A stretch of 17,018 nucleotides of DNA from a virus (lineage: Duplodnaviria; Heunggongvirae; Uroviricota; Caudoviricetes): IMG/VR virus record IMGVR_UViG_2606217117_000010. One strand, 5' to 3'. A program made the translations under genes and the position numbers. The notes under the pieces are model-generated. The model made no database searches and was not told where the DNA came from. It worked only from the letters and a program-made list of their open reading frames with translations. This document shows, one piece after another, positions 1 through 17,018 of this stretch (position 1 is the first letter of the stretch; each line of letters opens with the position of its first letter).

Positions 1-257
1 CTGCGGCGCAGTTCACGATTTTCACGCTCCAGCTCTTTCAGACGCTGACGTTCAGCGGTGGTGAGCCCTCCATCACCGCCCCCGGTATCCCGCTCATGCT
101 GGCGAACCCAGACACGCAGAGTCTCCGGCGTACAGCCAATCTTTGGAGCAATGGAACAAATTGTCGCCCATTGTGAGTCATATTCGCCCTGACTTTCCAG
201 AACCATACGGACTGCCCGTTGACGGACTTCAGGGGAAAAACGAGTATTTTTAGTCAT
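1..257 (-). CDS. IS3-family transposase OrfA (IS629-like), 3'-partial in window
   Basis: Minus-strand ATG at 257-255. Translation [85 protein letters not shown] is an HTH plus leucine-zipper OrfA typical of IS3 family and matches my recollection of IS629 OrfA. The ORF runs off the window start. Confidence 0.85.
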
Positions 258-311
258 CCTGTTTACCTCTTTCTCAGGAAGTTTAGTCTCCAGGATTCCC
301 GGGGCGGTTCA
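1..311 (-). mobile_element. IS3-family insertion sequence (IS629/IS1203-like), partial: terminal inverted repeat plus 5' part of orfA; element continues past the window start
   Basis: Reverse complement of 281-311 reads TGAACCGCCCCGGGAATCCTGGAGACTAAAC, a TG-initiated IS3-family terminal inverted repeat, which I recall as the IS629 left end. It is followed by an orfA start with GAGG RBS. A near-identical terminus (TGAACCGCCCCGGGTTTCCTGGAGAG) occurs at 16150. Confidence 0.85.
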
Positions 312-474
312 CTTTGTGGTAATAGGCCAGTCAACCAGCAGGATGCGTGTAAGCGAATTTGCGGAGCTATTAGAGCTTATACAGGCATTCGGTACAGAGC
401 GTGGCGTTAAGTGGTCAGACGAAGCGCGACTGGCTCTCGAATGGAAAGCGCGATGGGGAGATCGGGCTGCATGA
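312..474 (+). pseudogene. ninB: ninB (NinB/Orf-family recombination protein) 3' fragment, 5' part removed by the IS insertion
   Basis: Frame starting at 313 reads [53 protein letters not shown] then stop at 472-474. This matches the C-terminus of lambda NinB as I recall it. The reading frame begins abruptly at the IS boundary (311/312) with no start codon. Confidence 0.75.
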
Positions 475-998
475 CTATCAAATCAAATACGCCAGCACAC
501 GACAAGGACTGCTGGCAAACGCCGCTTTGGCTTTTTGATGCACTGGATATTGAGTTTGGATTCTGGCTGGATTCGGCAGCGAGCGACAAAAATGCTCTGT
601 GCGCTCACTGGCTAACTGAGGACGACGACGCGCTCAATTCTGAGTGGGTAAGCCACGGTGCAATCTGGAATAACCCACCGTACAGCAATATCAGGCCGTG
701 GGTGGAAAAAGCCGCTGAGCAGTGTATACAACAGCGACAGACGGTAGTGATGCTTGTGCCAGAGGATATGTCTGTCGGATGGTTCAGCAAGGCTCTGGAG
801 AGTGTTGACGAAGTTCGTATTATCACTGATGGACGGATTAATTTTATCGAACCATCGACAGGGCTGGAGAAGAATGGAAACAGCAAAGGCTCCATGCTGC
901 TGATTTGGCGACCGTTCATCAGTCCTCGACGGATGTTTACTACCGTATCCAAAGCGGCATTGATGGCGATCGGGCAGGGCGTCAGGAGGGCTGCATGA
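471..998 (+). CDS. phage DNA N6-adenine methyltransferase (phage Dam family, PF05869-like)
   Basis: Translation [31 protein letters not shown]...WNNPPYSN... carries the N-terminal CWQTP motif and the NPPY catalytic motif IV of N6-adenine methyltransferases. ATG 471 overlaps the ninB stop (ATGA), and the stop overlaps the ninE ATG. In-frame alternative starts at 411 (GTG), 441 and 453 would overlap ninB and are less likely. Confidence 0.8.
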
Positions 999-1171
999 GA
1001 CGACAGCGACGAAGCATCACCGACATAATCTGCGAAAACTGCAAATACCTTCCAACGAAATGCTCCAGAAATAAACGCAAGCTAATCCCAAAAGAATCTG
1101 ACGTAAAAACCTTCAATTACACAGCCCACCTGTGGGATATCCGGTGGCTAAGATATCGTGCGAGGAAATGA
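995..1171 (+). CDS. ninE: NinE protein
   Basis: 58 aa [58 protein letters not shown] matches lambda/DLP12 NinE as I recall it. RBS AGGAGG at 984-989. The ORF-track start at 905 is an upstream extension overlapping the methyltransferase. Confidence 0.75.
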
Positions 1172-1173
1172 CA

Positions 1174-1515
1174 ATGGATTATTCACAGTTAAGTGATTTT
1201 GAAATTAACAGAATGGTAGGAGACATAATTTTTAAAGGCCTTTGGGCAAGTAAACCGGAAACATCAGGGAATAACACCAACAAATGGTATTACGGAAATG
1301 CTGATACAACTTTTGAGCCATTAAATCATTTGCCTGACTACTGCAATGATCCGAGCGCTTCATGGCCGATTATTGAGAAATACAGGATTTCTATCTTAGA
1401 CCAGTTAACTGAATGGTGTGTGGATGCAAAAGGCGTAAGCCCAATATTTGATACCAGACCTCTCCGCGCCGCCATGATTGTCTTTCTCCTGATGCAGGAG
1501 GCCAATAATGCTTAG
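1174..1515 (+). CDS. nin-region hypothetical protein (about 113 aa); possible NinX/DUF-type phage protein
   Basis: Uninterrupted ORF in the expected nin-region slot between ninE and the ninF-like ORF. GAGGA RBS at 1162-1166 and ATG at 1174, with an alternative ATG at 1168. The stop overlaps the next start. No motif recognised. Confidence 0.55.
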
Positions 1516-1702
1516 CCCATCTCAATCCCTTCAATACCTGAAAGAAAGCATAGAGCGGGCTTCAATGTGCACAGAGTGGATTCTATCTAGGTTTAGCGCA
1601 TACAGAAGATTGCCGGTAAAGGGCATGCCAAGCAAGTCGATGCTGCATATGCAAAAGAATGCGCGCTGGAAGGTATGGCGAGAACACAGGTTATGTGGCT
1701 AA
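1508..1702 (+). CDS. ninF: NinF-like small protein (N-terminus NinF-like, remainder divergent)
   Basis: The N-terminal [18 protein letters not shown] resembles lambda NinF ([18 protein letters not shown]...), but the remainder does not show the cysteine-rich NinF pattern I remember. Position immediately upstream of rusA. Confidence 0.4.
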
Positions 1703-1721
1703 AAGAGGGGGTTATTAAGGC

Positions 1722-2084
1722 GTGAATACCTACAGCATCACATTACCCTGGCCTCCGAGCAATAATCGCTATTACCGCCATAATCGCGGGCGCACGCACG
1801 TCAGCGCAGAGGGGCAGGCATACCGCGATAACGTCGCCCGAATCATTAAAAACGCAATGCTGGATATCGGCCTGGCTATGCCTGTGAAAATCCGCATTGA
1901 GTGCCACATGCCGGATCGCCGTCGCCGTGACCTGGATAATCTGCAAAAAGCCGCTTTTGACGCACTCACTAAAGCAGGTTTCTGGCTGGATGATGCTCAG
2001 GTCGTTGATTACCGCGTTGTGAAGATGCCTGTTACCAAAGGTGGGAGGCTGGAACTGACCATCACCGAAATGGGGAATGAATGA
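1722..2084 (+). CDS. rusA: crossover junction endodeoxyribonuclease RusA (Holliday junction resolvase)
   Basis: 120 aa [47 protein letters not shown]...[31 protein letters not shown] matches E. coli DLP12 RusA as I recall it. GTG start with upstream GAGGGGG RBS. Confidence 0.9.
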
Positions 2085-2221
2085 TGTTTGAGTTTAATAT
2101 GGCAGAACTTCTTCGCCACCGCTGGGGGCGTCTGCGCTTATATCGTTTCCCCGGTTCTGTTTTGACCGATTACCGAATACTGAAGAATTACGCCAAAACC
2201 CTGACAGGAACAGGAGTATGA
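2081..2221 (+). CDS. ylcG: YlcG-like small phage protein (46 aa)
   Basis: Below the ORF-track threshold. ATG at 2081 overlaps the rusA stop (ATGA). Translation [46 protein letters not shown] matches DLP12 YlcG as I recall it and occupies the same rusA-ylcG-Q position. Confidence 0.5.
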
Positions 2222-2306
2222 AGTCAGAGATAACAATCAACTAATACTGTTTTGTTGATTTTTGCTTGTAATTGGCGTTCTGGTCTGATTTTTGTGGAGT
2301 AAGTTG

Positions 2307-2690
2307 ATGCGTGATATTCAGATGGTTCTTGAGCGTTGGGGTGCGTGGGCGGCTAATAATCATGAAGATGTGACCTGGTCGTCCATTGCCGCCGGTTTTA
2401 AGGGATTAATTCCTTCAAAAGTAAAATCTCGCCCGCAATGTTGTGACGATGACGCGATGATCATTTGCGGGTGCATGGCCCGTCTGAAAAAGAACAACAG
2501 CGATTTACACGATTTATTAGTAGATTATTATGTATGTGGTATGACATTCATGTCACTGGCAAGTAAGCATTGCTGCTCGGATGGTTATATCGGGAAAAGG
2601 TTACAGAAGGCTGAGGGCATAATTGAAGGGATGTTAATGGCATTAGATATCCGGTTAGATATGGATATCGTTGCTAATAATTCTAATTGA
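2307..2690 (+). CDS. quuD: late-gene antiterminator Q (phage 82 / DLP12 QuuD type)
   Basis: 127 aa [62 protein letters not shown]... is cysteine-rich (putative Zn site) and matches 82-type Q/QuuD as I recall it. GGAG RBS at 2296-2299. The ORF-track TTG at 2292 is an upstream extension. Confidence 0.85.
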
Positions 2691-2827
2691 TATGCAATTG
2701 TTTACTAAAAGTTATTAAAAATGGGGCGTGGAAACGCCCCCAAAATAAAGGGTAATATATAACAGAAGGTTTATATAGTAAGAAGCAAGGTAGTGCTTCT
2801 AAAGGAAGTGGCTTGAGGGCTCCACTT
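2691..2827 (+). promoter_or_regulatory. possible Q-proximal late promoter / qut region (location uncertain; alternative site at 4160-4205)
   Basis: Inference from lambdoid architecture, where PR' and qut lie directly downstream of Q and upstream of a terminator. An intrinsic terminator lies at 2828-2868, but I could not identify a convincing -35/-10 pair here. Confidence 0.25.
2711..2740 (-). terminator. rho-independent terminator of the porin gene (minus strand)
   Basis: Hairpin GGGGCG-TGGAAA-CGCCCC at 2723-2740. On the minus strand it is followed by ATTTTTAATAAC (reverse complement of 2711-2722). Confidence 0.6.
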
Positions 2828-2878
2828 ATATGTTGCGGAGGCAAAGCCTCCCGCAACATATCTTTTTCGTAAGTCAGA
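2741..2878 (-). ncRNA. ipeX: porin 3'-UTR with strong internal hairpin; candidate IpeX-like regulatory RNA
   Basis: Untranslated stretch between the porin stop (2879) and its terminator, containing the 14-bp-stem hairpin at 2828-2861. An sRNA (IpeX) has been described in the equivalent nmpC 3' region of DLP12 and phage PA-2, as I recall. Sequence identity to IpeX was not verified. Confidence 0.3.
2828..2868 (+). terminator. rho-independent terminator on + strand downstream of Q (tR'-like, or terminator of early rightward transcription)
   Basis: Stem ATATGTTGCGGAGG (2828-2841), loop CAAAG, stem CCTCCCGCAACATAT (2847-2861) with a 1-nt bulge, followed by CTTTTTCG. Confidence 0.6.
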
Positions 2879-3961
2879 TTAGAACTGATAAACCAGACCT
2901 ACAGCGACGATGTCGTCGGTATCAATACCAGCTGTTTTGGTAAACTTACTATCGTCAATTAAGTTGATTTTGTAATCAACAAAAGTAGACATGTTTTTAT
3001 TAAAGTAGTAAGTAGCACCGACATCGACATACTTGACTAAGTCTCGGTCACCATGAACACCAAGGTCTTTACCTTTTGACTGAAGGTAAGCAACAGATGG
3101 GCGCAGACCGAAGTCAAACTGATATTGTGCTACTGCTTCAAAGTTTTGTGCTTTGTTTGCAATATGGTTATTACCAAAAACGGTCATATTCTGAGTTTCA
3201 GAATATGTGGTAGCCAGATAGATATTGTTCGCATCATATTTCAGGCCTGCAGCCCATACTTCCGCATTTTTGCCGGAGGCATTGAATTTGCTCTTACCAT
3301 AGGCGACCTGACCGTCAGTGCGATCTGATTTAGCATAGGTTGCACCCACGCCGAATCCTTCATACTCATAAGTAGTGGAGAAACCGAAACCATCACCATT
3401 GGCTTCAGTTACGTCAGTGCGGTCATTTTTACCCTGATACTGAGCAGCAAAGTTCAGGCCATCGACCAGACCAAAGAAGTCGTTGTTACGATAAGTTGCA
3501 ACACCAGTAGTGCGACCAGTCATGAACACATCTGTTTGGGTCCAGGTATCACCACCGAATTCTGGCAGAACGTCAGTCCACGCACCGATGTCGTATGCTA
3601 CACCGTAGTTACGGCCGTAATCGATGGAGCCGTAATCACCAAATTTCAGGCCTGCAAATGCAAGACGGGTTTTGTCTTTGGAAGAACCTTGAGATTCAGC
3701 ACGGTTGCCTTTGAATTCATATTCCCACTGACCGAAACCAGTCAGTTGATCGTTGATTTGGGTTTCACCTTTGAAGCCAAGACGGGCATAAGTAGTATCA
3801 CCATCATCTGCATCATTAGAGGAGAAGTAGTGCTTGGCATTAACTTTCCCGTATAGATCCAGCTTGTTACTGTCTTTATTATAAATTTCAGCTGCCTGAG
3901 CAGACATCGCCATCAGTACTGATGCAGCTACAGCAGAAATTGCCACTGTTAATTTTTTCAT
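2879..3961 (-). CDS. nmpC: outer membrane porin, OmpC/PhoE general bacterial porin family (prophage NmpC / Lc type)
   Basis: 360 aa from ATG at 3961-3959. Signal peptide [23 protein letters not shown] followed by [16 protein letters not shown], and C-terminal ...VAVGLVYQF ending in Phe: hallmark porin features. Located between Q and the holin as nmpC is in DLP12. The ORF-track start at 4021 is an upstream extension. Confidence 0.9.
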
Positions 3962-4159
3962 TGTACGCCCTTTTTTTGAACTATTATTAAAAAATGATGT
4001 CACTGCGCGATAAATATTCATCTAATCAATGTGATTATTTCAAGATGTAAGTTTTAGTTTCTCATTTAATTTGTGAAGTAGATCTCTATTTTTATCTGAA
4101 CCTTTTCTATCTAATCCTATTCATGGCTCTTGTCTGAACAAAAATAAATCTATTAGCTA

Positions 4160-4205
4160 ATTTATATTAATGGCACTTATTTATAAGTGCTCTATAATTC
4201 TTTAG
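4160..4205 (+). promoter_or_regulatory. candidate sigma70 promoter (possible late promoter PR' driving a short terminated leader RNA)
   Basis: -35-like ATGGCA (4170-4175), 17-bp spacer, perfect -10 TATAAT (4193-4198). It lies about 190 nt upstream of the intrinsic terminator at 4388-4420, analogous to lambda PR'-tR'. The region is AT-rich, so a chance match is possible. Confidence 0.3.
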
Positions 4206-4387
4206 CTTAATTTAAACAAACTAAAAATAACATCGGAAATTATTAACTGATTATTTGTTGAAGTTTTCTTATGTATTTGTGGTGGTGTTTTGAACACTCG
4301 GTGGCATTCTCACAAATATCATTTAGTAGTTTACGTACGTAAAAAATTGGTTATGCTGTTAAGAGTGGTTACTTCGTCACACAGCTT

Positions 4388-4420
4388 AAACCCGCCGTCG
4401 AGCGGGTTTTTCCATTTTTT
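4388..4420 (+). terminator. rho-independent terminator on + strand, 130 bp upstream of the holin gene (tR'-like candidate)
   Basis: Stem AAACCCGC (4388-4395), loop CGTCGA, stem GCGGGTTT (4402-4409), followed by TTCCATTTTTT. Confidence 0.55.
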
Positions 4421-4549
4421 GAGTCTCGATATTAGCTGATAACCCAATACCTGAGTTATTCACTGACTCCGAATCTGTTACGTTTCTGCCTTTATTGCGA
4501 TACGTAATATCCCCTTAATTTACACCCGCTTTGTCTGCGAGGTGGGGTT

Positions 4550-4765
4550 ATGAAATCCATGGATAAGTTAACAACGGGTGTCGCCTATGGCACCTCAGCA
4601 GGTAGTGCCGGTTACTGGTTTTTACCGCTGCTCGATAAAGTCACGCCCTCACAGTGGGCAGCAATAGGTGTGCTGGGTAGCCTGGTATTTGGCCTGCTGA
4701 CGTACCTGACAAACCTTTATTTCAAGATTAAAGAAGATAAGCGCAAGGCTGCGAGAGGTGAATAA
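4550..4765 (+). CDS. essD: class II holin / pinholin (phage 21 S21 type) with dual-start motif
   Basis: 71 aa [71 protein letters not shown] has two TMDs and a basic C-terminus. Met1-Lys-Ser-Met4 is the antiholin/holin dual start. Matches S21 as I recall it. Confidence 0.9.
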
Positions 4766-5262
4766 TGCCTCCATCATTACGAAAAGCCGTTGCTGCTGCT
4801 ATTGGTGGCGGAGCAATTGCTATAGCATCAGTGTTAATCACTGGCCCAAGTGGTAACGATGGTCTGGAAGGTGTCAGCTACATACCATACAAAGATATTG
4901 TTGGTGTATGGACTGTATGTCACGGGCATACAGGAAAAGACATCATGCTCGGTAAAACGTATACCAAAGCAGAATGCAAAGCCCTCCTGAATAAAGACCT
5001 TGCCACGGTCGCCAGACAAATTAACCCGTACATCAAAGTCGATATACCGGAAACAATGCGCGGCGCTCTTTACTCATTCGTTTACAACGTGGGTGCTGGC
5101 AATTTCAGAACATCGACGCTTCTTCGCAAAATAAACCAGGGCGATATCAAAGGCGCATGTGATCAGCTACGTCGCTGGACATATGCTGGCGGTAAGCAAT
5201 GGAAAGGTCTCATGACTCGTCGTGAGATTGAGCGTGAAATCTGTTTGTGGGGTCAGCAATGA
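4765..5262 (+). CDS. rrrD: SAR endolysin (T4-lysozyme-like, GH24; phage 21 R21 type)
   Basis: N-terminal signal-anchor-release domain [20 protein letters not shown], followed by a catalytic E...D...T triad region ([24 protein letters not shown]). GAGAGG RBS. Start overlaps the holin stop by 1 nt. Confidence 0.9.
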
Positions 5263-5723
5263 ACAGAGTAACCGCGATTATCTCCGCTCTGGTTATCTGC
5301 ATCATCGTCTGCCTGTCATGGGCTGTTAATCATTACCGTGATAACGCCATTACCTACAAAGCCCAGCGCGACAAAAATGCCAGAGAACTGAAGCTGGCGA
5401 ACGCGGCAATTACTGACATGCAGATGCGTCAGCGTGATGTTGCTGCGCTCGATGCAAAATACACGAAGGAGTTAGCTGATGCGAAAGCTGAAAATGATGC
5501 TCTGCGTGATGATGTTGCCGCTGGTCGTCGTCGGTTGCACATCAAAGCAGTCTGTCAGTCAGTGCGTGAAGCCACCACCGCCTCCGGCGTGGATAATGCA
5601 GCCTCCCCCCGACTGGCAGACACCGCTGAACGGGATTATTTCACCCTCCGGGAACGACTGGTAATGATGCAGGCCCAACTTGAAGGTGCTCAGCAATACA
5701 TAACCGAGCAGTGTTTAAAGTAA
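5259..5723 (+). CDS. rzpD: i-spanin Rz
   Basis: [61 protein letters not shown]... has an N-terminal TMD and coiled coil, and is near-identical to lambda Rz as I recall it. ATG 5259 overlaps the endolysin stop (ATGA). Confidence 0.85.
5479..5664 (+). CDS. rzoD: o-spanin Rz1 (outer-membrane lipoprotein), embedded in the +1 frame of Rz
   Basis: [24 protein letters not shown]... carries a lipobox (VVGC), followed by the proline-rich [15 protein letters not shown]. Entirely nested inside Rz. Confidence 0.85.
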
Positions 5724-5860
5724 AATCTTAACTACAATATGATTCATTTTGATGATTGTTTCATAAGGAACAGTGAAGTAAGATCTAAGAGGAGTTAAAT
5801 TTTATACAGTATAATCATAATATTGCAGCAAGGTGGTTATAATTGAAAGAATATTTAGAT

Positions 5861-7318
5861 ATGAATACATCTCATGTAAGAGTTGTTACTCATATGTGTG
5901 GGTTCCTGGTTTGGCTCTATAGTCTTTCAATGTTGCCACCAATGGTTGTAGCATTGTTTTATAAAGAAAAAAGCCTGTTCGTTTTCTTTATAACTTTCGT
6001 TATATTTTTTTGCATTGGTGGCGGAGCGTGGTATACAACTAAGAAATCTGGCATTCAATTACGTACCCGTGATGGGTTTATTATAATTGTAATGTTTTGG
6101 ATTTTGTTTTCTGTTATTAGTGCATTCCCTTTATGGATTGACTCAGAACTTAATTTAACGTTCATTGATGCTCTGTTTGAAGGGGTTTCTGGAATAACAA
6201 CAACAGGAGCAACTGTAATTGATGATGTTAGTTCATTACCTCGGGCATATTTGTACTATCGGTCACAGTTAAATTTTATAGGTGGTTTAGGAGTTATTGT
6301 TCTGGCGGTTGCTGTATTGCCATTATTGGGTATTGGTGGTGCAAAGCTTTATCAGTCAGAAATGCCGGGGCCATTTAAGGATGACAAACTCACTCCCCGC
6401 CTGGCCGATACGTCACGGACACTGTGGATAACTTATTCTTTATTAGGTATTGCTTGTATTGTCTGTTATAGACTTGCAGGAATGTCTTTGTTTGATGCTA
6501 TTTGTCACGGGATTTCCACAGTTTCGCTTGGTGGTTTCTCAACTCATAGCGAGAGTATCGGATATTTTAATAACTATTTGGTTGAGCTGGTGGCTGGTTC
6601 TTTTTCCCTGCTATCGGCTTTCAACTTCACTCTTTGGTATATTGTTATTAGCAGAAAAACGATAAAACCTTTAATCAGAGATATTGAACTTCGTTTCTTT
6701 CTGTTAATAGCCTTAGGGATGATCATTGTTACCTCTTTCCAGGTCTGGCATATAGGTATGTATGACTTGCATGGAAGTTTTATTCATTCGTTTTTTCTTG
6801 CCAGCTCCATGCTCACTGATAATGGTTTAGCTACGCAGGATTATGCAAACTGGCCCACGCACACGATAGTGTTTTTGCTGTTGTCAAGTTTCTTTGGGGG
6901 ATGTATCGGTTCAACCTGTGGTGGAATTAAGTCACTTCGATTTCTTATACTTTTCAAACAAAGCAAACACGAGATAAATCAACTTTCTCATCCCAGAGCG
7001 TTGTTAAGTGTAAATGTAGGAGGGAAGATAGTTACAGATCGTGTAATGAGGTCTGTATGGAGTTTCTTTTTTCTTTATACTCTCTTCACGGTGTTTTTTA
7101 TACTGGTGTTAAATGGTATGGGATATGATTTTCTTACATCATTTGCAACAGTGGCTGCATGTATTAATAATATGGGATTAGGTTTTGGGGCTACTGCATC
7201 GTCATTCGGAGTGCTTAATGACATTGCAAAATATTTAATGTGCATAGCTATGATTCTTGGTCGCCTTGAAATTTATCCTGTTATTATATTGTTTTCAGGT
7301 TTTTTTTGGCGCTCCTAA
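5861..7318 (+). CDS. trkG: Trk-system potassium uptake protein TrkG (TrkH/KtrB superfamily)
   Basis: 485 aa polytopic membrane protein with repeated selectivity-filter-like glycine motifs (GITTTGATV, GIGGAK, SLGGFS, GSTCGGIK). Matches the Rac-prophage TrkG of E. coli as I recall it. AT-rich gene downstream of Rz/Rz1, as in Rac. The ORF-track TTG at 5843 is an upstream extension. Confidence 0.9.
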   Translation: MNTSHVRVVTHMCGFLVWLYSLSMLPPMVVALFYKEKSLFVFFITFVIFFCIGGGAWYTTKKSGIQLRTRDGFIIIVMFWILFSVISAFPLWIDSELNLTFIDALFEGVSGITTTGATVIDDVSSLPRAYLYYRSQLNFIGGLGVIVLAVAVLPLLGIGGAKLYQSEMPGPFKDDKLTPRLADTSRTLWITYSLLGIACIVCYRLAGMSLFDAICHGISTVSLGGFSTHSESIGYFNNYLVELVAGSFSLLSAFNFTLWYIVISRKTIKPLIRDIELRFFLLIALGMIIVTSFQVWHIGMYDLHGSFIHSFFLASSMLTDNGLATQDYANWPTHTIVFLLLSSFFGGCIGSTCGGIKSLRFLILFKQSKHEINQLSHPRALLSVNVGGKIVTDRVMRSVWSFFFLYTLFTVFFILVLNGMGYDFLTSFATVAACINNMGLGFGATASSFGVLNDIAKYLMCIAMILGRLEIYPVIILFSGFFWRS

Positions 7319-7404
7319 TATATGGCTGATTTATAATTGTGAGTTTAATATTATGTTGACTCACTCATTGATCCAATACCTAACTTTACCAGCAACACCT
7401 CCGC

Positions 7405-7439
7405 CCCCAGTAGCACTGGCTGCTGGGGTGCGTTTTATT
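7405..7439 (+). terminator. rho-independent terminator downstream of trkG
   Basis: Stem CCCCAGTAGC (7405-7414), loop ACTG, stem GCTGCTGGGG (7419-7428, one G-U pair), followed by TGCGTTTTATT. Confidence 0.55.
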
Positions 7440-7455
7440 CATAAAGCAAGGCTGT

Positions 7456-9175: not shown

Positions 9176-9362
9176 CGTTCTGGATGTTGATCTGAACCGA
9201 CTGAAAGAAAATCGGGAAGCAATGACAGATTTTTATGCGGCCATCCGTAAGGGCAGAGCGAAAGGTGAAGCCGAGTTACGAGCGGCATTGTTTAAGCTTG
9301 CCAGAAAAGGGGATGCCTTTGCTCTGCGCGAACTACTCAGGGTGGATAAAAATCAGGACTAA
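9111..9362 (+). CDS. small hypothetical protein, possibly DNA-binding (packaging-associated?)
   Basis: 83 aa ORF with GGGGTG RBS, ending 3 nt before the terminase small subunit start. Contains the HTH-like segment MTAQQIADVLDVDLNRL. It overlaps the 3' end of the upstream gene by 65 nt, and the alternative start at 9153 still overlaps by 23 nt. Confidence 0.45.
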   Translation: MIPYSKVESLAACRMTAQQIADVLDVDLNRLKENREAMTDFYAAIRKGRAKGEAELRAALFKLARKGDAFALRELLRVDKNQD

Positions 9363-9365
9363 CTG

Positions 9366-10460
9366 ATGAGCAGACCGGACTGGGGGGCGTTGCAGCAGGA
9401 GTATATTGCTGAATACACCCGCTCCGGTATATCTCCGGTGGCATGGTGTGAAGCAAGGGGACTGAACTACGCAACAGCCCGTCGTTACATCAAAAAAACT
9501 CCGAAAAATGCGCAGAAAGAAATGCGCAAAACTGCGCAAAAAAGTGCGCGAAAAAAAACTGCGCAGACTGCGCAAAGGCAGAACGGAAAATCTCAGAAAA
9601 AAAAGGCTGTATCCGATGCACTCCTGATTGAGGGGGACACGGAAGAAATTTCGTTCTGCCCCGATGAATTCGGTATTTCTGACCAGCAGGCAAAATTCGC
9701 CATGTTGGTTGCTCAGGGGAAAAAGCCGACAGAGGCATACCGACTGGCTGGTTATGAGGGGCAAGGTGCGACAGCTAACAGCAACGCCAGCCGTATGCTT
9801 AGAAATGCCAGGGTTTATCGTGCTATCAGCTACTTCCGCAATCAGTACCAGAAACGCTATACCGCAGACCTGGATTTACTGGTGAGCCAGTTGATGGCCA
9901 TTGTCCAGGCCGACCCCAATCAGTTGGCACAATTTCGCCGTGTTAACTGCCGTTATTGCTGGGGCGAGAATCATCTCTACCAGTGGCGTGATATTGCAGA
10001 ATTCGATAAGGCTGCGGCACAGGCCTCCAGAGATGGTAAACCCGAGCCGGAATATGGAGGCCTCGGCTTTGTTGATAACGCCATACCCAATCCTGATTGC
10101 CCGAAGTGCTGCGGTGAGGGAACAGGACAGCTTTATATGGCTGATACCACACTGCTTGATGGGGATGCGCGGCAATTATATGCAGGGTCAAAGCTCGGAA
10201 AATACGGTGTTGAGATCCTGCTGGAGGATAAGGCTGCCGCCCGGCGTGAATTGTTGCGTTTGCTTTCTGCTGGCGGGGCATTATGTGCAGATAAGCGGCT
10301 ACAGGAACTGGAAATTGAACGGCGCAGAATAGAGAACCAGAAGCTGCGCAAAGAGATCGAAACGGTGGAGGATAATGAACATCCCCAGCCTGTGGCGATC
10401 AATATTAATGTGGTTGATGCCAGATTAAGGAGTGATGAAGATGATCTCTCCGACGCTTAA
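9366..10460 (+). CDS. terminase small subunit (Terminase_2-like) with N-terminal HTH, lysine-rich linker and a CxxC...CxxC zinc-ribbon insertion
   Basis: Segment FGISDQQAKFAMLVAQGKKPTEAYRLAGYEGQGATANSNASRMLRNARV matches the terminase small-subunit pattern (LT.KQ..F...Y...NAT.A...AGYS...A...ASRLL.N). Lies immediately upstream of the large subunit. Cysteine pairs NCRYCWGE and DCPKCCGE. Confidence 0.7.
   Translation: MSRPDWGALQQEYIAEYTRSGISPVAWCEARGLNYATARRYIKKTPKNAQKEMRKTAQKSARKKTAQTAQRQNGKSQKKKAVSDALLIEGDTEEISFCPDEFGISDQQAKFAMLVAQGKKPTEAYRLAGYEGQGATANSNASRMLRNARVYRAISYFRNQYQKRYTADLDLLVSQLMAIVQADPNQLAQFRRVNCRYCWGENHLYQWRDIAEFDKAAAQASRDGKPEPEYGGLGFVDNAIPNPDCPKCCGEGTGQLYMADTTLLDGDARQLYAGSKLGKYGVEILLEDKAAARRELLRLLSAGGALCADKRLQELEIERRRIENQKLRKEIETVEDNEHPQPVAININVVDARLRSDEDDLSDA
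9490..9620 (+). repeat. degenerate tandem repeats (about 12 nt, TGCGCA-A-rich) with A7-A8 homopolymer runs, inside the terminase small subunit gene
   Basis: AATGCGCAGAAAG / AAATGCGCAAAA / CTGCGCAAAAAA / GTGCGCGAAAAAAAA / CTGCGCAGACTGCGCAAAGG, encoding KNAQKEMRKTAQKSARKKTAQTAQRQ. Confidence 0.5.
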
Positions 10461-11742
10461 TGTGCCTCAGGCGCGATTTCTTTCAATGCCCCATAAATTT
10501 AAAGCCTATATTGCTGGTTTTGGCTCGGGCAAAACATGGGTTGGGTGTGGCGGCATATGCAAGGGGATTTGGGAGCATCCAGGTATAAATCAGGGATATT
10601 TTGCGCCAACGTATCCCCAAATTCGCGATATTTTTTACCCTACAGTGGAAGAAGTTGCTGCTGACTGGGGATTGAACGTAAAAATTAATGAGGGAAATAA
10701 AGAGGTTCACTTTTATTACGGACGCCAGTATCGGGGAACCACTATCTGCAGATCGATGGAGAAGCCACAAACGATCGTCGGTTTCAAAATTGGTAATGCG
10801 CTGGTGGATGAACTGGACATTTTGCCGAAGGAAAAAGCCAGAACGGCGTGGCGCAAGATAATTGCGCGTATGCGTTATAAGATTGATGGACTTCGCAACG
10901 GTATTGACGTTACAACCACGCCGGAAGGATTCAAATTTGTCTACGAGCAGTTTGTTAAAGCCGTGCGTGAAAAAACAGAGCTGGCCTCACTGTATGGTCT
11001 GGTGCAGGCATCTACTTTCGATAATGAAAAGAACCTGCCAGCAGATTACATTCCTTCACTTCTTGAATCATACCCTCCAGAGCTGATTAAAGCCTATCTT
11101 CTAGGACGGTTTACTAACCTGACAAGTGGTACTGTTTACCATCAGTTTGACCGGAAACTGAATAATTGCGAAGAAGTGGAGCAGCCAGGGGAGCCGATTT
11201 ATATTGGGATGGATTTTAACGTTGGAAAGATGGCGGGAATCGTCCATGTGCTGCGTTTGGGGCTTCCATGTGCGGTAACTGAAATCATCAATGCCTACGA
11301 TACGCCGGATATGATCCGCCTCATTAAAGAACGCTTCTGGCTGTATGACGGGCATGATTACCGGAAAGTGAGGGAGATTTATATTTATCCAGATGCTTCC
11401 GGAGATTCCAGAAAATCAAGTAACGCAAGTACGACGGATATAGCCCAGCTTAAGCAGGCAGGTTTTAACGTTGTGGTGAACAGCTCGACCCCGCCAGTAA
11501 AAGATCGCGTTAACTCAATGAATGCAATGTTCTGCAATGCCAATGGTGAGCGTCGCTATAAAGTTAATGTGAAGCGTTGTCCGGTATATGCCGAATCTCT
11601 GGAGCAACAGGTCTGGGATGATAAGGGGGAGCCTGATAAAAAATCTGGCAATGATCACCCGAATGATGCCGGAGGTTATTTCATCGTTAAGCAATTCCCT
11701 ATTGTCAAACCGACCGGAAGAGTCACATCACTTCGGATTTAA
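10441..11742 (+). CDS. terminase large subunit (ATPase plus nuclease)
   Basis: Walker A AGFGSGKT near the N-terminus, and C-terminal nuclease acidic motifs (YPDASGDS, GNDHPNDAGG). AAGGAG RBS at 10426-10431 favours ATG 10441; the ORF-track start at 10432 (GTG) is also possible. Overlaps the end of the small-subunit gene. Confidence 0.9.
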   Translation: MISPTLNVPQARFLSMPHKFKAYIAGFGSGKTWVGCGGICKGIWEHPGINQGYFAPTYPQIRDIFYPTVEEVAADWGLNVKINEGNKEVHFYYGRQYRGTTICRSMEKPQTIVGFKIGNALVDELDILPKEKARTAWRKIIARMRYKIDGLRNGIDVTTTPEGFKFVYEQFVKAVREKTELASLYGLVQASTFDNEKNLPADYIPSLLESYPPELIKAYLLGRFTNLTSGTVYHQFDRKLNNCEEVEQPGEPIYIGMDFNVGKMAGIVHVLRLGLPCAVTEIINAYDTPDMIRLIKERFWLYDGHDYRKVREIYIYPDASGDSRKSSNASTTDIAQLKQAGFNVVVNSSTPPVKDRVNSMNAMFCNANGERRYKVNVKRCPVYAESLEQQVWDDKGEPDKKSGNDHPNDAGGYFIVKQFPIVKPTGRVTSLRI

Positions 11743-11744
11743 TT

Positions 11745-13151
11745 ATGGCTGATATATCAACACCCAACCTCGACTATAACGATATGCTGGAGGCGTGGGA
11801 TATTAACGACGCATTGATGGGCGGTACGCTTGAAATGCGCAGGCAGGGGGAAAATTATCTCCCCAAATGGCCTAATGAAGATGAAGACGCTTATAAAAAA
11901 CGCCTGTCTGTGGCTACGTTACTTCCTGTGTATGAAGAAAGCATCAAACAAAATATTGGGCGCATATTTGCAGAGCCGACAGTATTGAGTGAGGAAACGC
12001 CGGAAAAAATCAGGGAATATGCAGAAAATATCGACATGGAGGGGAGCCGACTGGATGTGTGGGCGCAGCAATTTTTCAGTCTCGCATTTCAGTATGGTGT
12101 GGCACATGCGCTGGTGGACTATCCACGAACGGATATGAACGAGATTCGGACAAAAGCCGATGAAAACGCGGCCGGTGGTCGCCCGTACGTTACGATGCTG
12201 AATCCACGCCAGGTTATTGGATGGAAATCGAAAGTTGAAAAAGGGAAAGTTGTTCTCACTGATTTGCGTATAAAAGAGGTCATCATTATTGATGGTGATG
12301 ATTTCGGGCAGAAGAAGGTGGAGCAGATCCGCCATATTATGCCCCGTCGAGTTGAAATTTATCGACGTAGCGAAGGCACTAATGGCGAATCTGTCTGGAC
12401 GCTTCATGAGTCATGGAATACCAGCCGTGATGATATTCCTCTGGTAACACTGTACACGAAGAAAACAGGATTTATGCGTGGTACACCGCCATTGCTTAAT
12501 CTTGGCTTGCTGAATATCAAGCACTGGCAAAGCCAGAGCGAGCAGGACAATATTCTTCATGTTGCCCGCGTTCCATTGCTGGTGGCCTACGGGCTGGACA
12601 GGAATGAAGAACTGACGGTTGGTGCATCCACCGCTACGATTTTTGAGGACAGAACAAAAAATGGCCTCGAATATGTTGAACATAGTGGCGCAGCGATAGA
12701 ATCTGGCGAAACATCACTTGAGAAGCTGGAAAATCAGATGCGTCATGCCGGCGCTAAACTTCTGCGTGCTGAAAATACATCCACCAAATCTGTTGATCAG
12801 ACTAATGAAGAGCGAATGCAGGAAAACTCGCCGCTTTATACAATGGCGAACTCCCTCGAAGATGCCCTCGATAATATTCTCCAGATAATGGCGGAATGGA
12901 TCGGAGAGAGTTGCGGTGGCAATGTGGATGTGCGCACTGAACTGGATGTATCTGCCCAGGTGTTTGACTCATCCTCCGCGCTGGCTGTTCAGTCATTGCG
13001 TCAGGGCGGTGATATACGTCAGATTGATGCGGTTCGGGTGTTGCAGGCGTTGAAATTTATCGATCAGGATTCCCGTCCAGAGGAAGTGATCGATGAATTA
13101 AAAAATCAGAGTGTAATGCTGATGGAAATCAATGATGCAAACCGTGAATGA
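11745..13151 (+). CDS. portal protein (putative)
   Basis: 468 aa ORF starting 3 nt after the large-terminase stop and followed by a Mu-F-like head morphogenesis gene: the canonical portal position and size. No motif confirmation. Confidence 0.7.
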   Translation: MADISTPNLDYNDMLEAWDINDALMGGTLEMRRQGENYLPKWPNEDEDAYKKRLSVATLLPVYEESIKQNIGRIFAEPTVLSEETPEKIREYAENIDMEGSRLDVWAQQFFSLAFQYGVAHALVDYPRTDMNEIRTKADENAAGGRPYVTMLNPRQVIGWKSKVEKGKVVLTDLRIKEVIIIDGDDFGQKKVEQIRHIMPRRVEIYRRSEGTNGESVWTLHESWNTSRDDIPLVTLYTKKTGFMRGTPPLLNLGLLNIKHWQSQSEQDNILHVARVPLLVAYGLDRNEELTVGASTATIFEDRTKNGLEYVEHSGAAIESGETSLEKLENQMRHAGAKLLRAENTSTKSVDQTNEERMQENSPLYTMANSLEDALDNILQIMAEWIGESCGGNVDVRTELDVSAQVFDSSSALAVQSLRQGGDIRQIDAVRVLQALKFIDQDSRPEEVIDELKNQSVMLMEINDANRE

Positions 13152-14247
13152 ACGGCTGCGTGATGAATCAATTGCTCATGCAGTCTGGATATCCCGCTAT
13201 AGCACTGGCGTGGCTGCCAGAATGGTGAAAATACTGAATGACAGCGATGCGGAACTTACTGCTCGCCTGCTGATAGCACTGGACAGCCTCGATCCAGGTA
13301 GTTTTACCGTTAAGCGCCTGGAGTCACTTCTGGCGAGCGTCAGAGAGGTTAACCGCACTGCTATTAACAGCATGTTTACCAGTCTCTCCGGAGAGCTGAA
13401 CGAGCTGGCAATTTATGAGGCTGGTTATCAGTTAAGTCTGTTTGATTCTATGCTACCTGATTTTGTTGCTGATGTTCACCCTCTGGTTGGTATCTCTCCT
13501 GATGCACTTTATGCCGCTGCAATGGCGCGACCATTCCAGGGACGACTGCTCAGTGAGTGGGCCTCAGATCTTGAGGCGGATCGGCTCAGACGCATAACAA
13601 ATACAGTGCGTCAGGGTTTTTTGCTGGGGGATACCAATGAGCAGATCGCAAGAAAAATTCGGGGACATGTCAGTAAGGGATTTCAGGATGGTGCATTGCA
13701 GATGAGCCGGGCTAATGCGGCCAGCATTGCAAAAACAGCGGTTGGACATCTTGCTGCTACTGCCCGTGAGAGTTTTGCCAGCGCGAATAATGATTTGATT
13801 AAGGGTAAGCAATGGTTATCAACGCTTGATAATCGTACTACGCCACAATGTCGAATCAGGGATCGCCTCAAATATACGCTGAATAATAAACCTGTAGGTC
13901 ACAGCGTGCCTTATTTGCAGGGGCCGGGAAAAATTCATTTCTGCTGCCGCTCAACGGAAACGTTCATTCTGAAATCAGCGAAGGAACTGGGTATTGATGT
14001 TCGCGATATTTCCCCGGCTGAGCGGGCCAGCATGGATGGCGTGATGGCCGGAGATACAACCTACAGGGAATGGTTTTTGCGTCAGCCTTACACCAGACAA
14101 AAACAGATTGTGGGGGAAAGCCGAGCAAAGCTGATTCGGGATGGTGGTATGTCGCCAGATGAATTTTACACCGATAAAGGCGAATGGCTGACGCTGAAGC
14201 AGCTCCGTGAGCGTGATGCACAGGTATTCAGAAAAGCAGGGATTTAA
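13132..14247 (+). CDS. phage head morphogenesis protein, SPP1 gp7 / Mu F family (minor head protein)
   Basis: Contains the family-typical segment GKQWLSTLDNRTTPQCRIRDRLKY (D-x-R-T-x-x-C). Overlaps the portal gene end by 20 nt. Confidence 0.8.
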   Translation: MMQTVNERLRDESIAHAVWISRYSTGVAARMVKILNDSDAELTARLLIALDSLDPGSFTVKRLESLLASVREVNRTAINSMFTSLSGELNELAIYEAGYQLSLFDSMLPDFVADVHPLVGISPDALYAAAMARPFQGRLLSEWASDLEADRLRRITNTVRQGFLLGDTNEQIARKIRGHVSKGFQDGALQMSRANAASIAKTAVGHLAATARESFASANNDLIKGKQWLSTLDNRTTPQCRIRDRLKYTLNNKPVGHSVPYLQGPGKIHFCCRSTETFILKSAKELGIDVRDISPAERASMDGVMAGDTTYREWFLRQPYTRQKQIVGESRAKLIRDGGMSPDEFYTDKGEWLTLKQLRERDAQVFRKAGI

Positions 14248-14266
14248 ATAAATCATTTATTACAAC

Positions 14267-14294
14267 AGGCTACCTTCGGGTGGCCTTTTTTATT
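14267..14294 (+). terminator. rho-independent terminator with UUCG tetraloop between the head morphogenesis and scaffold genes
   Basis: AGGCTACC-TTCG-GGTGGCCT (8-bp stem including one G-U pair) followed by TTTTTATT, beginning 20 nt after the stop at 14247. Confidence 0.6.
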
Positions 14295-14351
14295 GCTGCG
14301 ATCCGGATGGTGAGCAGCGTAACTGTCGGAAGACTTAAACCAGGTACTAAT

Positions 14352-15116
14352 ATGAAACTGAAAACGGTCGAGATTAACGGAAAACAATACGCAGAAATTG
14401 ATACTGCTGGCCTGCCAGTTTATGTGCACGACGATGGTAAAGAAATTGGCTTCGATGCACCGCTGGCGACAAAAAAAATTACAGAGCTTAATGGCGAGGC
14501 AAAAAATCATCGCCTGGCTAAAGAAGCTGCAGAGGAAAAACTGGCTAAGTTTGCCGCTATCGAAGACCCGAAGAAGGCGATCGAGGCACTGGAAATGCTG
14601 TCAAAAATCGACCAGAAAAAGCTGCTCGATGCGGGACAGGTTGACCAGGTTAAGGCAGAAATTACGAAAAATTTTCAGCAGCAATTAGATGAAGAAAAGC
14701 AACGCTCTCAGATGCTGGAGAAGCAGCTTTACGATTCTATGATTGGCGGTAGTTTTGCGGGTTCAAAATATATTGCCGATAAAATTGCGATCCCGGCAGA
14801 TTTATTACAAGCCCGCTTCGGGCAGGCATTCAAAGTGGAAGAAGGGAGGATCGTTGCTTATGACGCTTCCGGCAACAAAATTTATTCCCGCGCGAAGCCT
14901 GGCGAACTGGCGCAGTTTGATGAGGCGCTGGAGTTCCTTGTCGAAAATTACCCTCAGAAAGACTACATCCTGAAAGCCAGTGGCAACAATGGCGGCGGCT
15001 CCCGTCCGACACAGCATGATATTGGTCAGAAAACGATGAAACGCTCTGCTTTTGATGCACTGGATGTTGCAGGTAAGCAAAACGCATTGAAAGACGGTAT
15101 CACAATCGTTGATTAA
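14352..15116 (+). CDS. putative scaffolding protein
   Basis: 254 aa, highly charged and alanine/lysine/glutamate-rich with predicted coiled-coil character. Positioned between the head morphogenesis and capsid genes. The ORF-track start at 14280 lies inside the terminator hairpin, so ATG 14352 is preferred. Confidence 0.55.
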   Translation: MKLKTVEINGKQYAEIDTAGLPVYVHDDGKEIGFDAPLATKKITELNGEAKNHRLAKEAAEEKLAKFAAIEDPKKAIEALEMLSKIDQKKLLDAGQVDQVKAEITKNFQQQLDEEKQRSQMLEKQLYDSMIGGSFAGSKYIADKIAIPADLLQARFGQAFKVEEGRIVAYDASGNKIYSRAKPGELAQFDEALEFLVENYPQKDYILKASGNNGGGSRPTQHDIGQKTMKRSAFDALDVAGKQNALKDGITIVD

Positions 15117-15214
15117 CACATTTGTCAGCTTCCGGATGGGAGCTGGTGTCAGGGCTGGATAGCTCATTACTCCATCTATTCACAATTACGCAAATTTTTA
15201 AGGAATATTTAATT

Positions 15215-16149
15215 ATGGCTGGAAATACCCTGACCGGGTTGATCCCGACTATTTATACCGCCCTGGATGTTGTATCCCGTGAGCAGGTAGGTTTTATCCC
15301 TGCGGTAGCAAAAAACGCAAAAGCTGACGCCGCAGCAAAAGATCAGACGGTAACCGCGCCAGTTGCGCCTGAGGCGAAAACCGAAGATATCGTACCGGGG
15401 CCGTCAGCTCCGAATACCGGTGATCAAAATATTGGCACTGTTGATGTAAAAATTACTAAATCCAAAATGGCACCGGTTAAATGGAATGGTGAAGAACAAC
15501 TGGCTCTTGGCCCTTCAGGGACTTACAACACCATTCTGGCTGATCAGTTCAAGCAGGCTTTTCGCGCCCTTGCAAACGAGGTTGAGGCTGATCTTGGTGC
15601 GTTGTATTTCGGTGCTTCCCGCGCCGTGGGAACCGCAGGGACAACGCCGTTTGGTGTTAAAGATGATCTTTCTGATGCTGCTCTGGCTCGTCAGGTTCTG
15701 GAGGATAACGGCGCACCGACAACCGATCTGCAGATGGTGCTTGGCTCCACTGCCATTGCTAATTTGCGCGGAAAACAGTCTGTATTGTTTAAAGTGAATG
15801 AATCCGGCACTGAACAGCTACTGCGTGAGGGCGTGTTGGGGCGTCTGGAGGGATTCAATATTCACAGTTCGGCAGGTGTGAAACGAGCGCCAAAGGTTGC
15901 TGCAACTGGTTATCTCGTGAATGGAGAGAAAAAAGAAGGCGATGTTCTTATTTCCATTGATACTGGTTCGGGGAGTATTTCTGCAGGTCAGATTGTTACG
16001 TTCGCTGGTGATCCGAATCAGTATGTTGTGGCAGCAGCGACCAGCAATCTGATTACTCTTGCAGCGCCCGGACTGCGTCAGGATCTGGCCGATGATACTG
16101 CCATCACAGTTGTTGGGGCCTTTACTGCAAATATGGCGTTTGATCGCAA
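15215..16149 (+). pseudogene. major capsid (coat) protein gene, 3' end interrupted by IS insertion
   Basis: ORF with AAGGA RBS and ATG 15215, directly after the scaffold gene. The reading frame runs into the IS terminus at 16150 and ends 13 codons later inside IS sequence (...MAFDRN|EPPRVSWRVFYL*). Capsid identity is by position and size only. Confidence 0.6.
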
Positions 16150-17018
16150 TGAACCGCCCCGGGTTTCCTGGAGAGTATTTTATCTGTGAACTCAGGCTGC
16201 CAGATCATCGTTTCCGATGGAAGCATAATAAGCTTTTTCTGCTTCTGCCGGAGGAGTATGGCCCAGCCTTTCCAGCAATCGTCGATTGTTATACCAGTCC
16301 ACCCACGTGAGTGTGGCCAGTTCCACTTCTGCACGGTTTTTCCAGCTCTTACGGTGTATTACCTCCGCTTTGTAAAGACCATTGATGCTCTCCGCCATCG
16401 CGTTGTCATACGAGTCGCCTGTACTTCCTGTTGATGCCAGTAATCCGGCTTCCTTAAGCCGCTGTGTGTAGGCCAGCGATACATACTGAGAACCTTTATC
16501 ACTGTGATGGACCGTGCCGGACGGTCGACGGGCCCATAACGCCTGCTCCAGTGCATCCAGCACGAATGTCGTCTCCATGGACGATGAGACCCGCCACCCC
16601 ACAATGTATCCGGCAAACACATCAATGATGAACGCCACATAGACGAAGCCCTGCCATGTGCTGACGTAAGTAAAATCAGCCACCCACAGCTGGTCAGGTC
16701 GTTCTGCCACGAACTGACGGTTTACGCGGTCGCCTGCGGCAACGGCTTTCCGGCTGATGGTCGTACGGACCTTTTTACCCCGGAGAACACCGGCAAGTCC
16801 CATAACCGCCATGAGACGTGCCACAGTGCATCTGGCCACTCTGATACCTTCCCGTAACAACTGACGCCAGACTTTACGCACACCGTATACCTTGTGATTT
16901 TCATCGTATACGCGCTGTATCTCTTTCTTCAGCCAGTCATCGCGCTGCGCACGGGCACTGCGTTTATCCGGATGATGTCGCTGTTGCTGACAGTGGTAAT
17001 ACGTTGACGGGGCAATAT
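16150..17018 (-). mobile_element. IS3-family insertion sequence (IS629/IS1203-like), partial: inverted repeat at the orfB end plus most of orfB; element continues past the window end
   Basis: Terminus TGAACCGCCCCGGGTTTCCTGGAGAG at 16150 is an inverted-repeat partner of the terminus at 281-311. A DDE transposase gene follows on the minus strand. Confidence 0.85.
16192..17018 (-). CDS. IS3-family transposase OrfB (DDE integrase-like catalytic domain), 5'-partial in window
   Basis: Translation ...RKVWRQLLREGIRVARCTVARLMAVMGLAGVLRGKK...WVADFTYVSTWQGFVYVAFIIDVFAGYIVGW...HHSDKGSQYVS...DSYDNAMAESINGLYKAEV... contains a DDE motif (D...D...E). The frame stays open to the window edge, consistent with an OrfAB frameshift fusion. 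Confidence 0.85.
   Translation of the reverse strand, partial: IAPSTYYHCQQQRHHPDKRSARAQRDDWLKKEIQRVYDENHKVYGVRKVWRQLLREGIRVARCTVARLMAVMGLAGVLRGKKVRTTISRKAVAAGDRVNRQFVAERPDQLWVADFTYVSTWQGFVYVAFIIDVFAGYIVGWRVSSSMETTFVLDALEQALWARRPSGTVHHSDKGSQYVSLAYTQRLKEAGLLASTGSTGDSYDNAMAESINGLYKAEVIHRKSWKNRAEVELATLTWVDWYNNRRLLERLGHTPPAEAEKAYYASIGNDDLAA

Follow-up and report, generated by a model that had tools for sequence, protein, structure and literature searches.

The window, which is the whole 17,018-bp stretch of DNA analysed here, is a single short-read assembly contig from an E. coli prophage region, with both ends inside a multi-copy IS629 element. It is best read as a draft contig that ends in repeats and contains two ordinary IS629 junctions, and not as a composite transposon; the probability of this reading was put at roughly 0.8. 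The window was the whole of contig JNQN01000069.1 (17018 bp; assembly GCA_000704145.1), and its source is a human-associated E. coli lineage in which a 1310-bp element of the IS629 type (IS3 family) is present about 20 times. The sequence-only reading had seen two IS copies bracketing a 15.8-kb prophage block, unless the ends were assembly collapses of IS repeats; the latter proved to be so, since this complete draft contig breaks off in a repeat for which the related complete chromosome CP091756.1 has 22 matches. The element was found in 4258 of 5426 complete E. coli genomes, at a median of 4 places each. It would appear that the assembler was unable to span the repeat, so that the contig halted after entering it by 311 bp at one end and 869 bp at the other. 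The right-hand junction was present on eight draft or metagenome contigs (L004–L011, of which L004 is the window's own contig, 100% identical to it across 11804 bp), and every one of them terminated inside the IS, 53–869 bp in, while read-through was seen in the complete genome OZ038772.1 only. This resembles the repeat-induced breaks and chimeric joins of short-read bacterial assemblies, in that the contig starts and stops within a high-copy repeat and sister assemblies stop at the same IS and within a shared lysis cassette; it differs in that the contig reaches unusually deep into the IS (311 and 869 bp), and traverses an exact repeat of 591–861 bp rather than stopping in it. The contig contained no Ns and no obvious discontinuity. 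The main value of the case is one of caution: where a window has IS pieces at both ends, these may show no more than that a draft contig stops there, and the intervening DNA may itself be a chimera assembled through a prophage repeat.

Both terminal fragments lay on the minus strand and were identical to the ends of the 1310-bp element, a complete copy of which occupies L003 10936–12245 in OZ038772.1. Positions 1–311 comprised the left end, with IRL and the first 85 codons of orfA (311/311 identical to L003 11935–12245), while positions 16150–17018 comprised the right end, with IRR and the last 274 codons of orfB, encoding the rve DDE transposase (869/869 identical to L003 10936–11804); each was cut by the contig end. 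The termini fell exactly where they had been placed from the sequence alone, with IRL ending at 311 (...GGGGCGGTTCA/CTTTGTGG) and IRR at 16150 (GATCGCAA/TGAACCGCCCC...). The element ends were of the 5'-TG...CA-3' type (IRL, TGAACCGCCCCGGGAATCCTGGAGAC; IRR, TGAACCGCCCCGGGTTTCCTGGAGAG) and formed imperfect terminal inverted repeats at 271–311 and 16150–16190, the 41-nt arms being 78% complementary. Translation placed the first 85 residues of OrfA on the minus strand of 1–257, and the last 274 residues of OrfB on the minus strand of 16192–17016. Pfam identified HTH_21/rve in the OrfB part of the window's own contig, and the order of orfA (HTH; PF01527) followed by same-strand orfB with rve DDE (PF13276/PF00665/PF13683) was observed across the window's contig and the identical full copy.

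The fragments together covered 1180 of 1310 bp (311 + 869) as two separate terminal pieces rather than one complete element, and so the earlier estimate that about 130 bp were lacking was correct. The absent 130 bp correspond to IS positions 312–441, where the frameshift site lies, together with the greater part of the ALIL pseudoknot; these were annotated in a full, 100% identical copy in CP091756.1 as a programmed frameshift and AL1L pseudoknot (frameshift region IS ~312–452). An Rfam scan of the window returned no families at threshold because the pseudoknot region lies within the absent segment. In its TG...CA imperfect repeats, its orfA (HTH_Tnp_1) and orfB (rve DDE) order, its full 1310-bp copy in relatives, its multiple copies and its preference for prophage genes, the element resembles IS629/IS1203 (IS3 family, 1310 bp) of E. 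coli and Shigella lambdoid prophages, as catalogued for O157:H7; target duplications there are also often mismatched owing to secondary deletions. It differs in that the host here is a human commensal or extra-intestinal type of E. coli rather than O157, and in that RefSeq names identical copies just 'IS3 family transposase'. In O157:H7, 62% of IS629 copies lie within prophages, and target duplications of 3–4 bp were observed at only 21 of 47 sites (PMC3271280). Many gene inactivations and genomic deletions are attributed to IS629 (PMC9943667).

The junctions between IS and host sequence, in ninB at left and the major capsid gene at right, are both real. They were compared with OZ038772.1, the closest complete genome, which contains an att-lambda-site prophage (A), flanked by ybhC-ybhJ, and a Rac-site prophage (B), flanked by sitABCD-uspF-ompN-ydbK. 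At left, the IS followed nt 278 of the 441-nt ninB gene, leaving the last 54 codons as a 3' remnant (312–474, plus strand); ninB was intact in prophage A at L016 9564–10004, where window position 312 corresponded to L016 9842. A 200-bp probe did not recover this junction in any of 5426 complete E. coli genomes, and an exact 31-mer had no matches in IMG/VR, JGI metagenomes or GTDB species representatives. No record was found for a 63-aa ORF spanning the junction, and the 52-aa and 43-aa ORFs of the ninB remnant led only to ninB genes that were split or contig-terminal and unrelated to this one, and to a single IS629 insertion at a distance of 2 bp that had arisen independently. The strain therefore has a private history, given that its ninB junction was found nowhere else.

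At right, the major capsid gene (15215–16189, plus strand) was truncated after codon 311 of the 379 that encode the intact protein in relatives, and its reading frame ran on through 13 codons of the IS to a stop. An identical fusion protein was found on 15 contigs, and the junction occurred at the native Rac-site locus only. A 200-bp probe of this junction had a sole full-coverage match among complete E. coli genomes, in two pieces over 637 bp and with a different junction; the best matches of the window to complete RefSeq E. coli were 97–98% identical and carried neither IS copy. In OZ038772.1 the capsid IS was full-length with flanks CAA and GAT, and without a target duplication; the capsid 3' end and the tail genes were missing, and a tail-fibre remnant lay beyond the IS. 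A simple IS629 insertion would be expected to produce a 3–4 bp duplication (PMC3271280), although the outer flanks in the window itself lie past the contig ends. A simple insertion at the capsid was ruled out by the missing duplication and the different DNA past the IS in OZ038772.1. The lack of duplication and the remnant beyond a full IS indicate an IS-associated deletion in that genome, which begins at the capsid 3' end and reaches the tail-fibre region. CP091756.1 carried the same IS with more loss on both sides, IRR being next to the equivalent of window position 9357 and IRL next to L003 13076. IS-linked deletion, which had been suggested as a possibility for the window, was visible at the capsid locus of both relatives.

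The window alone is no proof of two IS copies because its fragments cover separate parts of the element; nothing is duplicated within the window, the pieces combined are shorter than one IS, and no SNPs distinguish them. It had been argued that the 130-bp gap spoke against a single IS split across a circular junction. As proof of two copies this argument was dropped, since contig ends within repeats are not obliged to meet, but the existence of two copies could be upheld from the flanks in OZ038772.1. There, the capsid-side IS was full and its IRL adjoined GATGGATTTTTGCAG (the tail-fibre remnant, then sitABCD-uspF-ompN-ydbK), while the IRL in the window adjoined CTTTGTGGTAATAGG (ninB); for this reason the two junctions almost certainly represent two different IS copies. 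Were the fragments instead the two ends of one IS, the contig would be a circular molecule or a tandem duplication of the block plus one IS. The fragments are indeed complementary, non-overlapping portions of one element, and their orientation fits the closure of a circle over the contig ends. However, besides the capsid-side IS running into the tail-fibre remnant rather than ninB, there was no terminal overlap or direct repeat between the contig ends, the CAA and CTT flanks did not make a target duplication, and the block itself encoded neither replication nor integration functions, all of which leaves a single IS extremely unlikely.

The interior, judged by its sequence matches, is a mosaic and not a single ancestral block. 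Positions 312–5648 showed no mismatches to prophage A in 5337 bp (100%), while positions 5215–17018 showed one mismatch to prophage B in 11804 bp (99.99%). Within 4548–5057 there were 30 mismatches to prophage B, the last at 5057, and so the switch from A to B lay inside an exact 591-bp repeat common to both prophages (5058–5648, no mismatch to either), situated in the lysozyme and Rz genes of the lysis cassette. Prophages A and B are 1.27 Mb apart in OZ038772.1 and mutually inverted. The closest sister, draft contig JOSM01000028.1, had the 11489-C allele of the window, yet a B-type base at 4787; its exact repeat probably spans 4788–5648. Among long assemblies with an identical TrkG, all six had a B-type left arm and none the A/B join of the window. 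The A-type lysozyme protein was followed by Rz-Bor and never by trkG, in all ten distinct places among the matches listed, which were drawn from 24 index blocks.

From this evidence, the join was considered somewhat likelier to be a chimeric assembly path through the repeat than a real, very recent recombinant, the odds of the latter falling a little short of even. If the join is chimeric, the two IS copies would lie in separate, distant prophages. The other possibility is that the original interpretation was essentially right: a real hybrid prophage, with an att-lambda-type left arm and a trkG-type right arm joined in the lysis cassette, would then carry two direct IS629 copies 15.8 kb apart, and could lose the block by homologous recombination between them or by deletion driven from an IS end. 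Such a hybrid is biologically plausible because phages with a collinear arrangement of these modules (nin, Q, porin, lysis, trkG, terminase, capsid) occur naturally elsewhere in E. coli, as a single alignment piece at 97–98% identity (H10407, ET745). Prophage-prophage recombination in E. coli is also documented (bioRxiv 10.1101/2020.12.02.407981). The unbroken contig and the IS629-linked deletions at this locus in relatives are also consistent with it, as is the relative orientation of the prophages, which differs between two related complete genomes and shows that large rearrangements occur in the lineage. Nevertheless, the halves are identical to two separate prophages and switch within an exact repeat, the join is missing from all six TrkG-identical assemblies, the closest sister takes the other path at 4787, and a megabase inversion would be required, given that the prophages are inverted and 1.27 Mb apart in OZ038772.1. 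A hybrid of this kind was therefore regarded as possible but doubtful. If the IS copies are truly 15.8 kb apart, the block would be a predictable deletion substrate, which is still standard IS biology.

Whether the join is chimeric or real, there is no sign of composite transposition; the window reflects the usual decay of prophages under IS activity, as it looks in a fragmented assembly, and the biology is already known. The composite-transposon-like architecture suggested from the sequence alone was not supported, with no sign of the block ever moving as a unit; its contiguity as one 15.8-kb piece is doubtful, since its halves match prophages 1.27 Mb apart. The unit was found in no second genomic context among 5426 complete E. 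coli genomes, or, for the left junction, in IMG/VR, JGI metagenomes and GTDB representatives. An active composite transposon, in which the flanking IS629 copies mobilise the porin and trkG morons, would account for the geometry, both IS ends facing the block in the same orientation. Against this, the inner junctions have their native prophage surroundings, with the ninB 3' and capsid 5' parts continuing collinearly into their own prophages. Comparison between strains, moreover, placed the right junction only at the native Rac-site locus and the left junction nowhere else, and the right IS in OZ038772.1 lacks a target duplication; this explanation is scarcely credible. Tn10 and Tn5 are similar in that two copies of one IS seem to flank a cargo, but here the cargo consists of native prophage DNA still in its original setting, the outer IS ends and any flanking duplication would lie beyond the contig, and the unit was found in no second location. 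Both IS copies are cut by contig ends, and what lies between is a mosaic of two distant prophages. Active composites are rarely formed by IS3-family elements. It is very improbable, too, that the hybrid segment is real, has a complete IS629 copy in direct orientation on either side, and is mobilisable or precisely excisable as a unit; in that case a porin gene, trkG and the ParB/TAGT gene pair would travel with it between prophages or replicons.

The events behind the two junctions would be ordinary. Each IS copy may have entered a prophage gene, ninB or the major capsid gene, by the copy-out/paste-in transposition typical of the IS3 family, after which the capsid copy would have been followed by the deletion seen in OZ038772.1, out to the tail-fibre region. 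The interior combines the att-lambda-site prophage (312–5648) with the Rac-site prophage (5215–17018), joined in the lysozyme/Rz repeat. This fits a well-documented pattern, in which IS629-type elements inactivate prophage genes and seed deletions that lead to cryptic prophages, while morons, trkG and the porin gene among them, are retained.

Pfam and RefSeq annotation confirmed that the interior spans the nin region to the capsid, including the porin gene and trkG. The nin region (471–2690, plus strand; Pfam on the 100% identical L016 and RefSeq names of homologues) encoded a Dam-like methyltransferase (471–998), NinX (1174–1515), RusA (1722–2084) and antiterminator Q/QuuD (2307–2690). The porin moron was a 380-aa ORF on the minus strand (2879–4021; Porin_1/Porin_4), the same DNA being called as 360 aa in some records. 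It was followed on the plus strand by the lysis cassette (4550–5723), with holin (4550–4765), lysozyme (4765–5262) and Rz (5259–5723), and by the potassium-transporter moron trkG (5861–7318; PF02386 TrkH, RefSeq trkG). The remainder (7456–15116, plus strand; Pfam on L003/L004) encoded ParB/Srx-like and TAGT/GREB1-like proteins, small and large terminase, a portal (DUF4055), a Mu-F-like minor head protein and DUF6651. Collinear nin, Q, lysis, terminase, portal and capsid genes, in identical or 97–98% identical DNA, identify the region as lambdoid. Its gene order and morons, with the porin gene following Q and preceding the lysis genes, and trkG downstream of the latter, resemble the cryptic lambdoid prophages of E. 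coli at the Rac site (Rac-like trkG) and att-lambda site (DLP12-like nin-Q-lysis with nmpC/porin). It differs from these in its head module, with terminase_2/terminase_6, a DUF4055 portal and a P22-type capsid, which is largely intact save for the IS insertion. The Dam, porin and lysozyme proteins were very widespread in look-ups.

The two ends of the window were identified as parts of an IS629-type element of the IS3 family, both on the minus strand. Positions 1–311 were identical (311/311) to the IRL end, and positions 16150–17018 (869/869) to the IRR end, of a full-length element (1310 bp) within the Rac-site prophage of the complete genome OZ038772.1 (L003 10936–12245), which confirmed the minus-strand IS629-like fragments with termini at 311 and 16150 described in the sequence-only reading. 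The left terminus, at 311/312, ran from ...GGGGCGGTTCA into CTTTGTGG; the right, at 16149/16150, ran from GATCGCAA into TGAACCGCCCC. By translation, the minus strand of 1–257 encodes the N-terminus of OrfA, and that of 16192–17016 the C-terminus of OrfB with its rve domains. The imperfect IS terminal repeats were the sole inverted repeat detected in the window. In IS coordinates the two pieces are disjoint, and therefore leave no duplicated sequence inside the window; the 130 bp absent from it correspond to IS positions 312–441, annotated in an identical IS copy as the frameshift/pseudoknot region, which explains why an Rfam scan of the window reported nothing.

An exact-sequence look-up of the truncated-capsid fusion protein (15215–16189) showed that the window is the entire draft contig JNQN01000069.1 of assembly GCA_000704145.1 (17018 nt; identical across the 11.8 kb retrieved), and therefore that both IS fragments are contig ends. 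Other draft and metagenome contigs with the capsid::IS junction (L005–L011) all ended 53–565 bp into the element; among sequences with this junction, only the complete chromosome OZ038772.1 read through it. The element is a high-copy repeat: the related complete chromosome CP091756.1 has 22 matching places, and of 5426 complete E. coli genomes 4258 contain it, at a median of 4 places. The bracketing ends, previously taken as structure, were thus reinterpreted as assembly effects of IS repeats at the limits of a whole draft contig, an outcome that the sequence-only reading had itself named as one that would refute it.

Comparison with OZ038772.1 showed that the bracketed block is a mosaic of two prophages. 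Window 312–5648 showed no mismatch in 5337 bp to the att-lambda-site prophage (L016; ybhJ-ybhC-int...), where ninB is intact, and diverged from it from 5649 on. Over its 11804 bp, window 5215–17018 differed at a single position from the Rac-site prophage (L003/L033), and a further 30 differences from that prophage fell between 4548 and 5057. The intervening 591 bp at 5058–5648 (lysozyme 3' end and Rz) were identical in the window and both prophages, which lie 1.27 Mb apart in opposite orientation. The closest sister draft contig, JOSM01000028.1, shares the window's C at 11489, absent from all other relatives; at 4787 its base is that of the Rac prophage, yet at 4981–5057 its bases are those of the window, and therefore the exact repeat in this sub-lineage was probably 4788–5648. 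The two assemblies exit this repeat on different sides. In the 10 distinct places displayed (from 24 index blocks), the window's lysozyme protein was always followed by Rz-Bor and never by trkG, and all six long assemblies with an identical TrkG had another left arm (DUF1367, YbcO, DUF1133-type Q, TolA-like, holin), the nin, QuuD and porin arm of the window occurring in none of them. The att-lambda/Rac join was interpreted as a chimeric assembly join, with a probability of about 0.55. A real, recent recombinant, judged slightly short of an even chance, would give the same join; phages with exactly the window's collinear architecture exist, and recombination between prophages occurs commonly in E. 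coli (bioRxiv 10.1101/2020.12.02.407981).

In the NCTC genome UGFX01000002.1 (L013/L032), the att-lambda-site and Rac-site prophages share one orientation and lie 0.70 Mb apart; set against OZ038772.1, this implies a large chromosomal inversion within the lineage.

Although the IS fragments are contig ends, both IS junctions are real. Relative to the intact ET745 and H10407, which matched window 312–16149 as one piece at 97–98% identity, ninB was cut by the left IS after nucleotide 278 of 441, and the major capsid gene by the right IS after codon 311 of 379. OZ038772.1 carries a full-length copy of the capsid IS, whose far end adjoins a tail-fibre remnant, beyond which come sitABCD, uspF, ompN and ydbK, i.e., the Rac attachment region; the outer flank of its IRL reads GATGGATTTTTGCAG. 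No target duplication was found at this copy (flanks CAA and GAT), and in the Rac-site prophage the 3' end of the capsid gene is missing, as are all tail genes. In the window, IRL adjoins ninB rather than the tail-fibre remnant, and therefore two different IS copies most likely lie at its ends. That both fragments derive from a single IS, or that the window is circular, is very unlikely in view of the structure of this relative and of flanks that do not match. An independent IS629 insertion in ninB was seen in GCA_965255975.1 (contig CBDGJG010000079.1, L039 1–300), 2 bp from the window's site (window 312–318) and in the opposite orientation, with IRR abutting TTGTGGTAATAGG versus IRL abutting CTTTGTGGTAATAGG in the window; this proximity may point to a local hot spot for insertion in ninB.

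A composite transposon, which the sequence-only reading had raised as a composite-transposon-like architecture, found no support. The outer ends of the IS copies, and any duplication around them, are out of view; on the inner side, each IS borders native prophage sequence that keeps its native order; the right junction was present at its native locus only, and the left had no other occurrence among complete E. coli genomes, IMG/VR, JGI metagenomes and GTDB representatives. That the morons (porin and trkG) are carried on a real, mobilisable unit bounded by IS629 is very improbable.

The capsid locus follows a familiar pattern, IS629 insertion and then IS-associated deletion. CP091756.1 (strain LC-1302-2020) carries the same capsid IS (L047 10498–11807; L053) with more loss on both sides: IRR adjoins window position 9357, 6.8 kb of the head-gene side (window 9358–16149) being gone relative to OZ038772.1, and IRL lies 830 bp deeper in the tail-fibre region. 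The two chromosomes form a nested, two-sided deletion series about one IS. In O157:H7, prophages harbour 62% of the IS629 copies, and a matching 3–4 bp duplication is kept at just 21 of 47 sites (PMC3271280); many genomic deletions are linked to IS629 (PMC9943667). The suggestion of deletion-prone architecture holds for IS629 in this prophage generally, given the losses in OZ038772.1 and CP091756.1; for this particular pair it would hold only if the two copies are truly adjacent.

Everything in the window fits known biology, namely lambdoid prophages with IS629/IS1203-type elements, cryptic Rac-like and DLP12-like prophages with trkG and porin morons, and short-read assembly limited by repeats. 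Another IS629, flanked by ea8.5 and a truncated O gene in the att-lambda-site prophage of OZ038772.1 (L016 4075–7659), is split by a group II intron with a 507-aa ORF (RVT_1 and GIIM; L016 5531–7054); CM128543.1, UGFX01000002.1 and LR890262.1 have this IS uninterrupted at the corresponding site. Window 7456–9175, situated between trkG and the terminase genes, holds two overlapping genes: one has a ParB/Srx N-terminal domain (PF02195), the other is of a TAGT/GREB1-like glycosyltransferase family (PF20691). The pair was conserved in all relatives seen and may serve the phage in DNA modification or anti-defence. The porin moron (2879–4021) is called as 380 or 360 aa by different records of identical DNA, and its true start codon is ambiguous.
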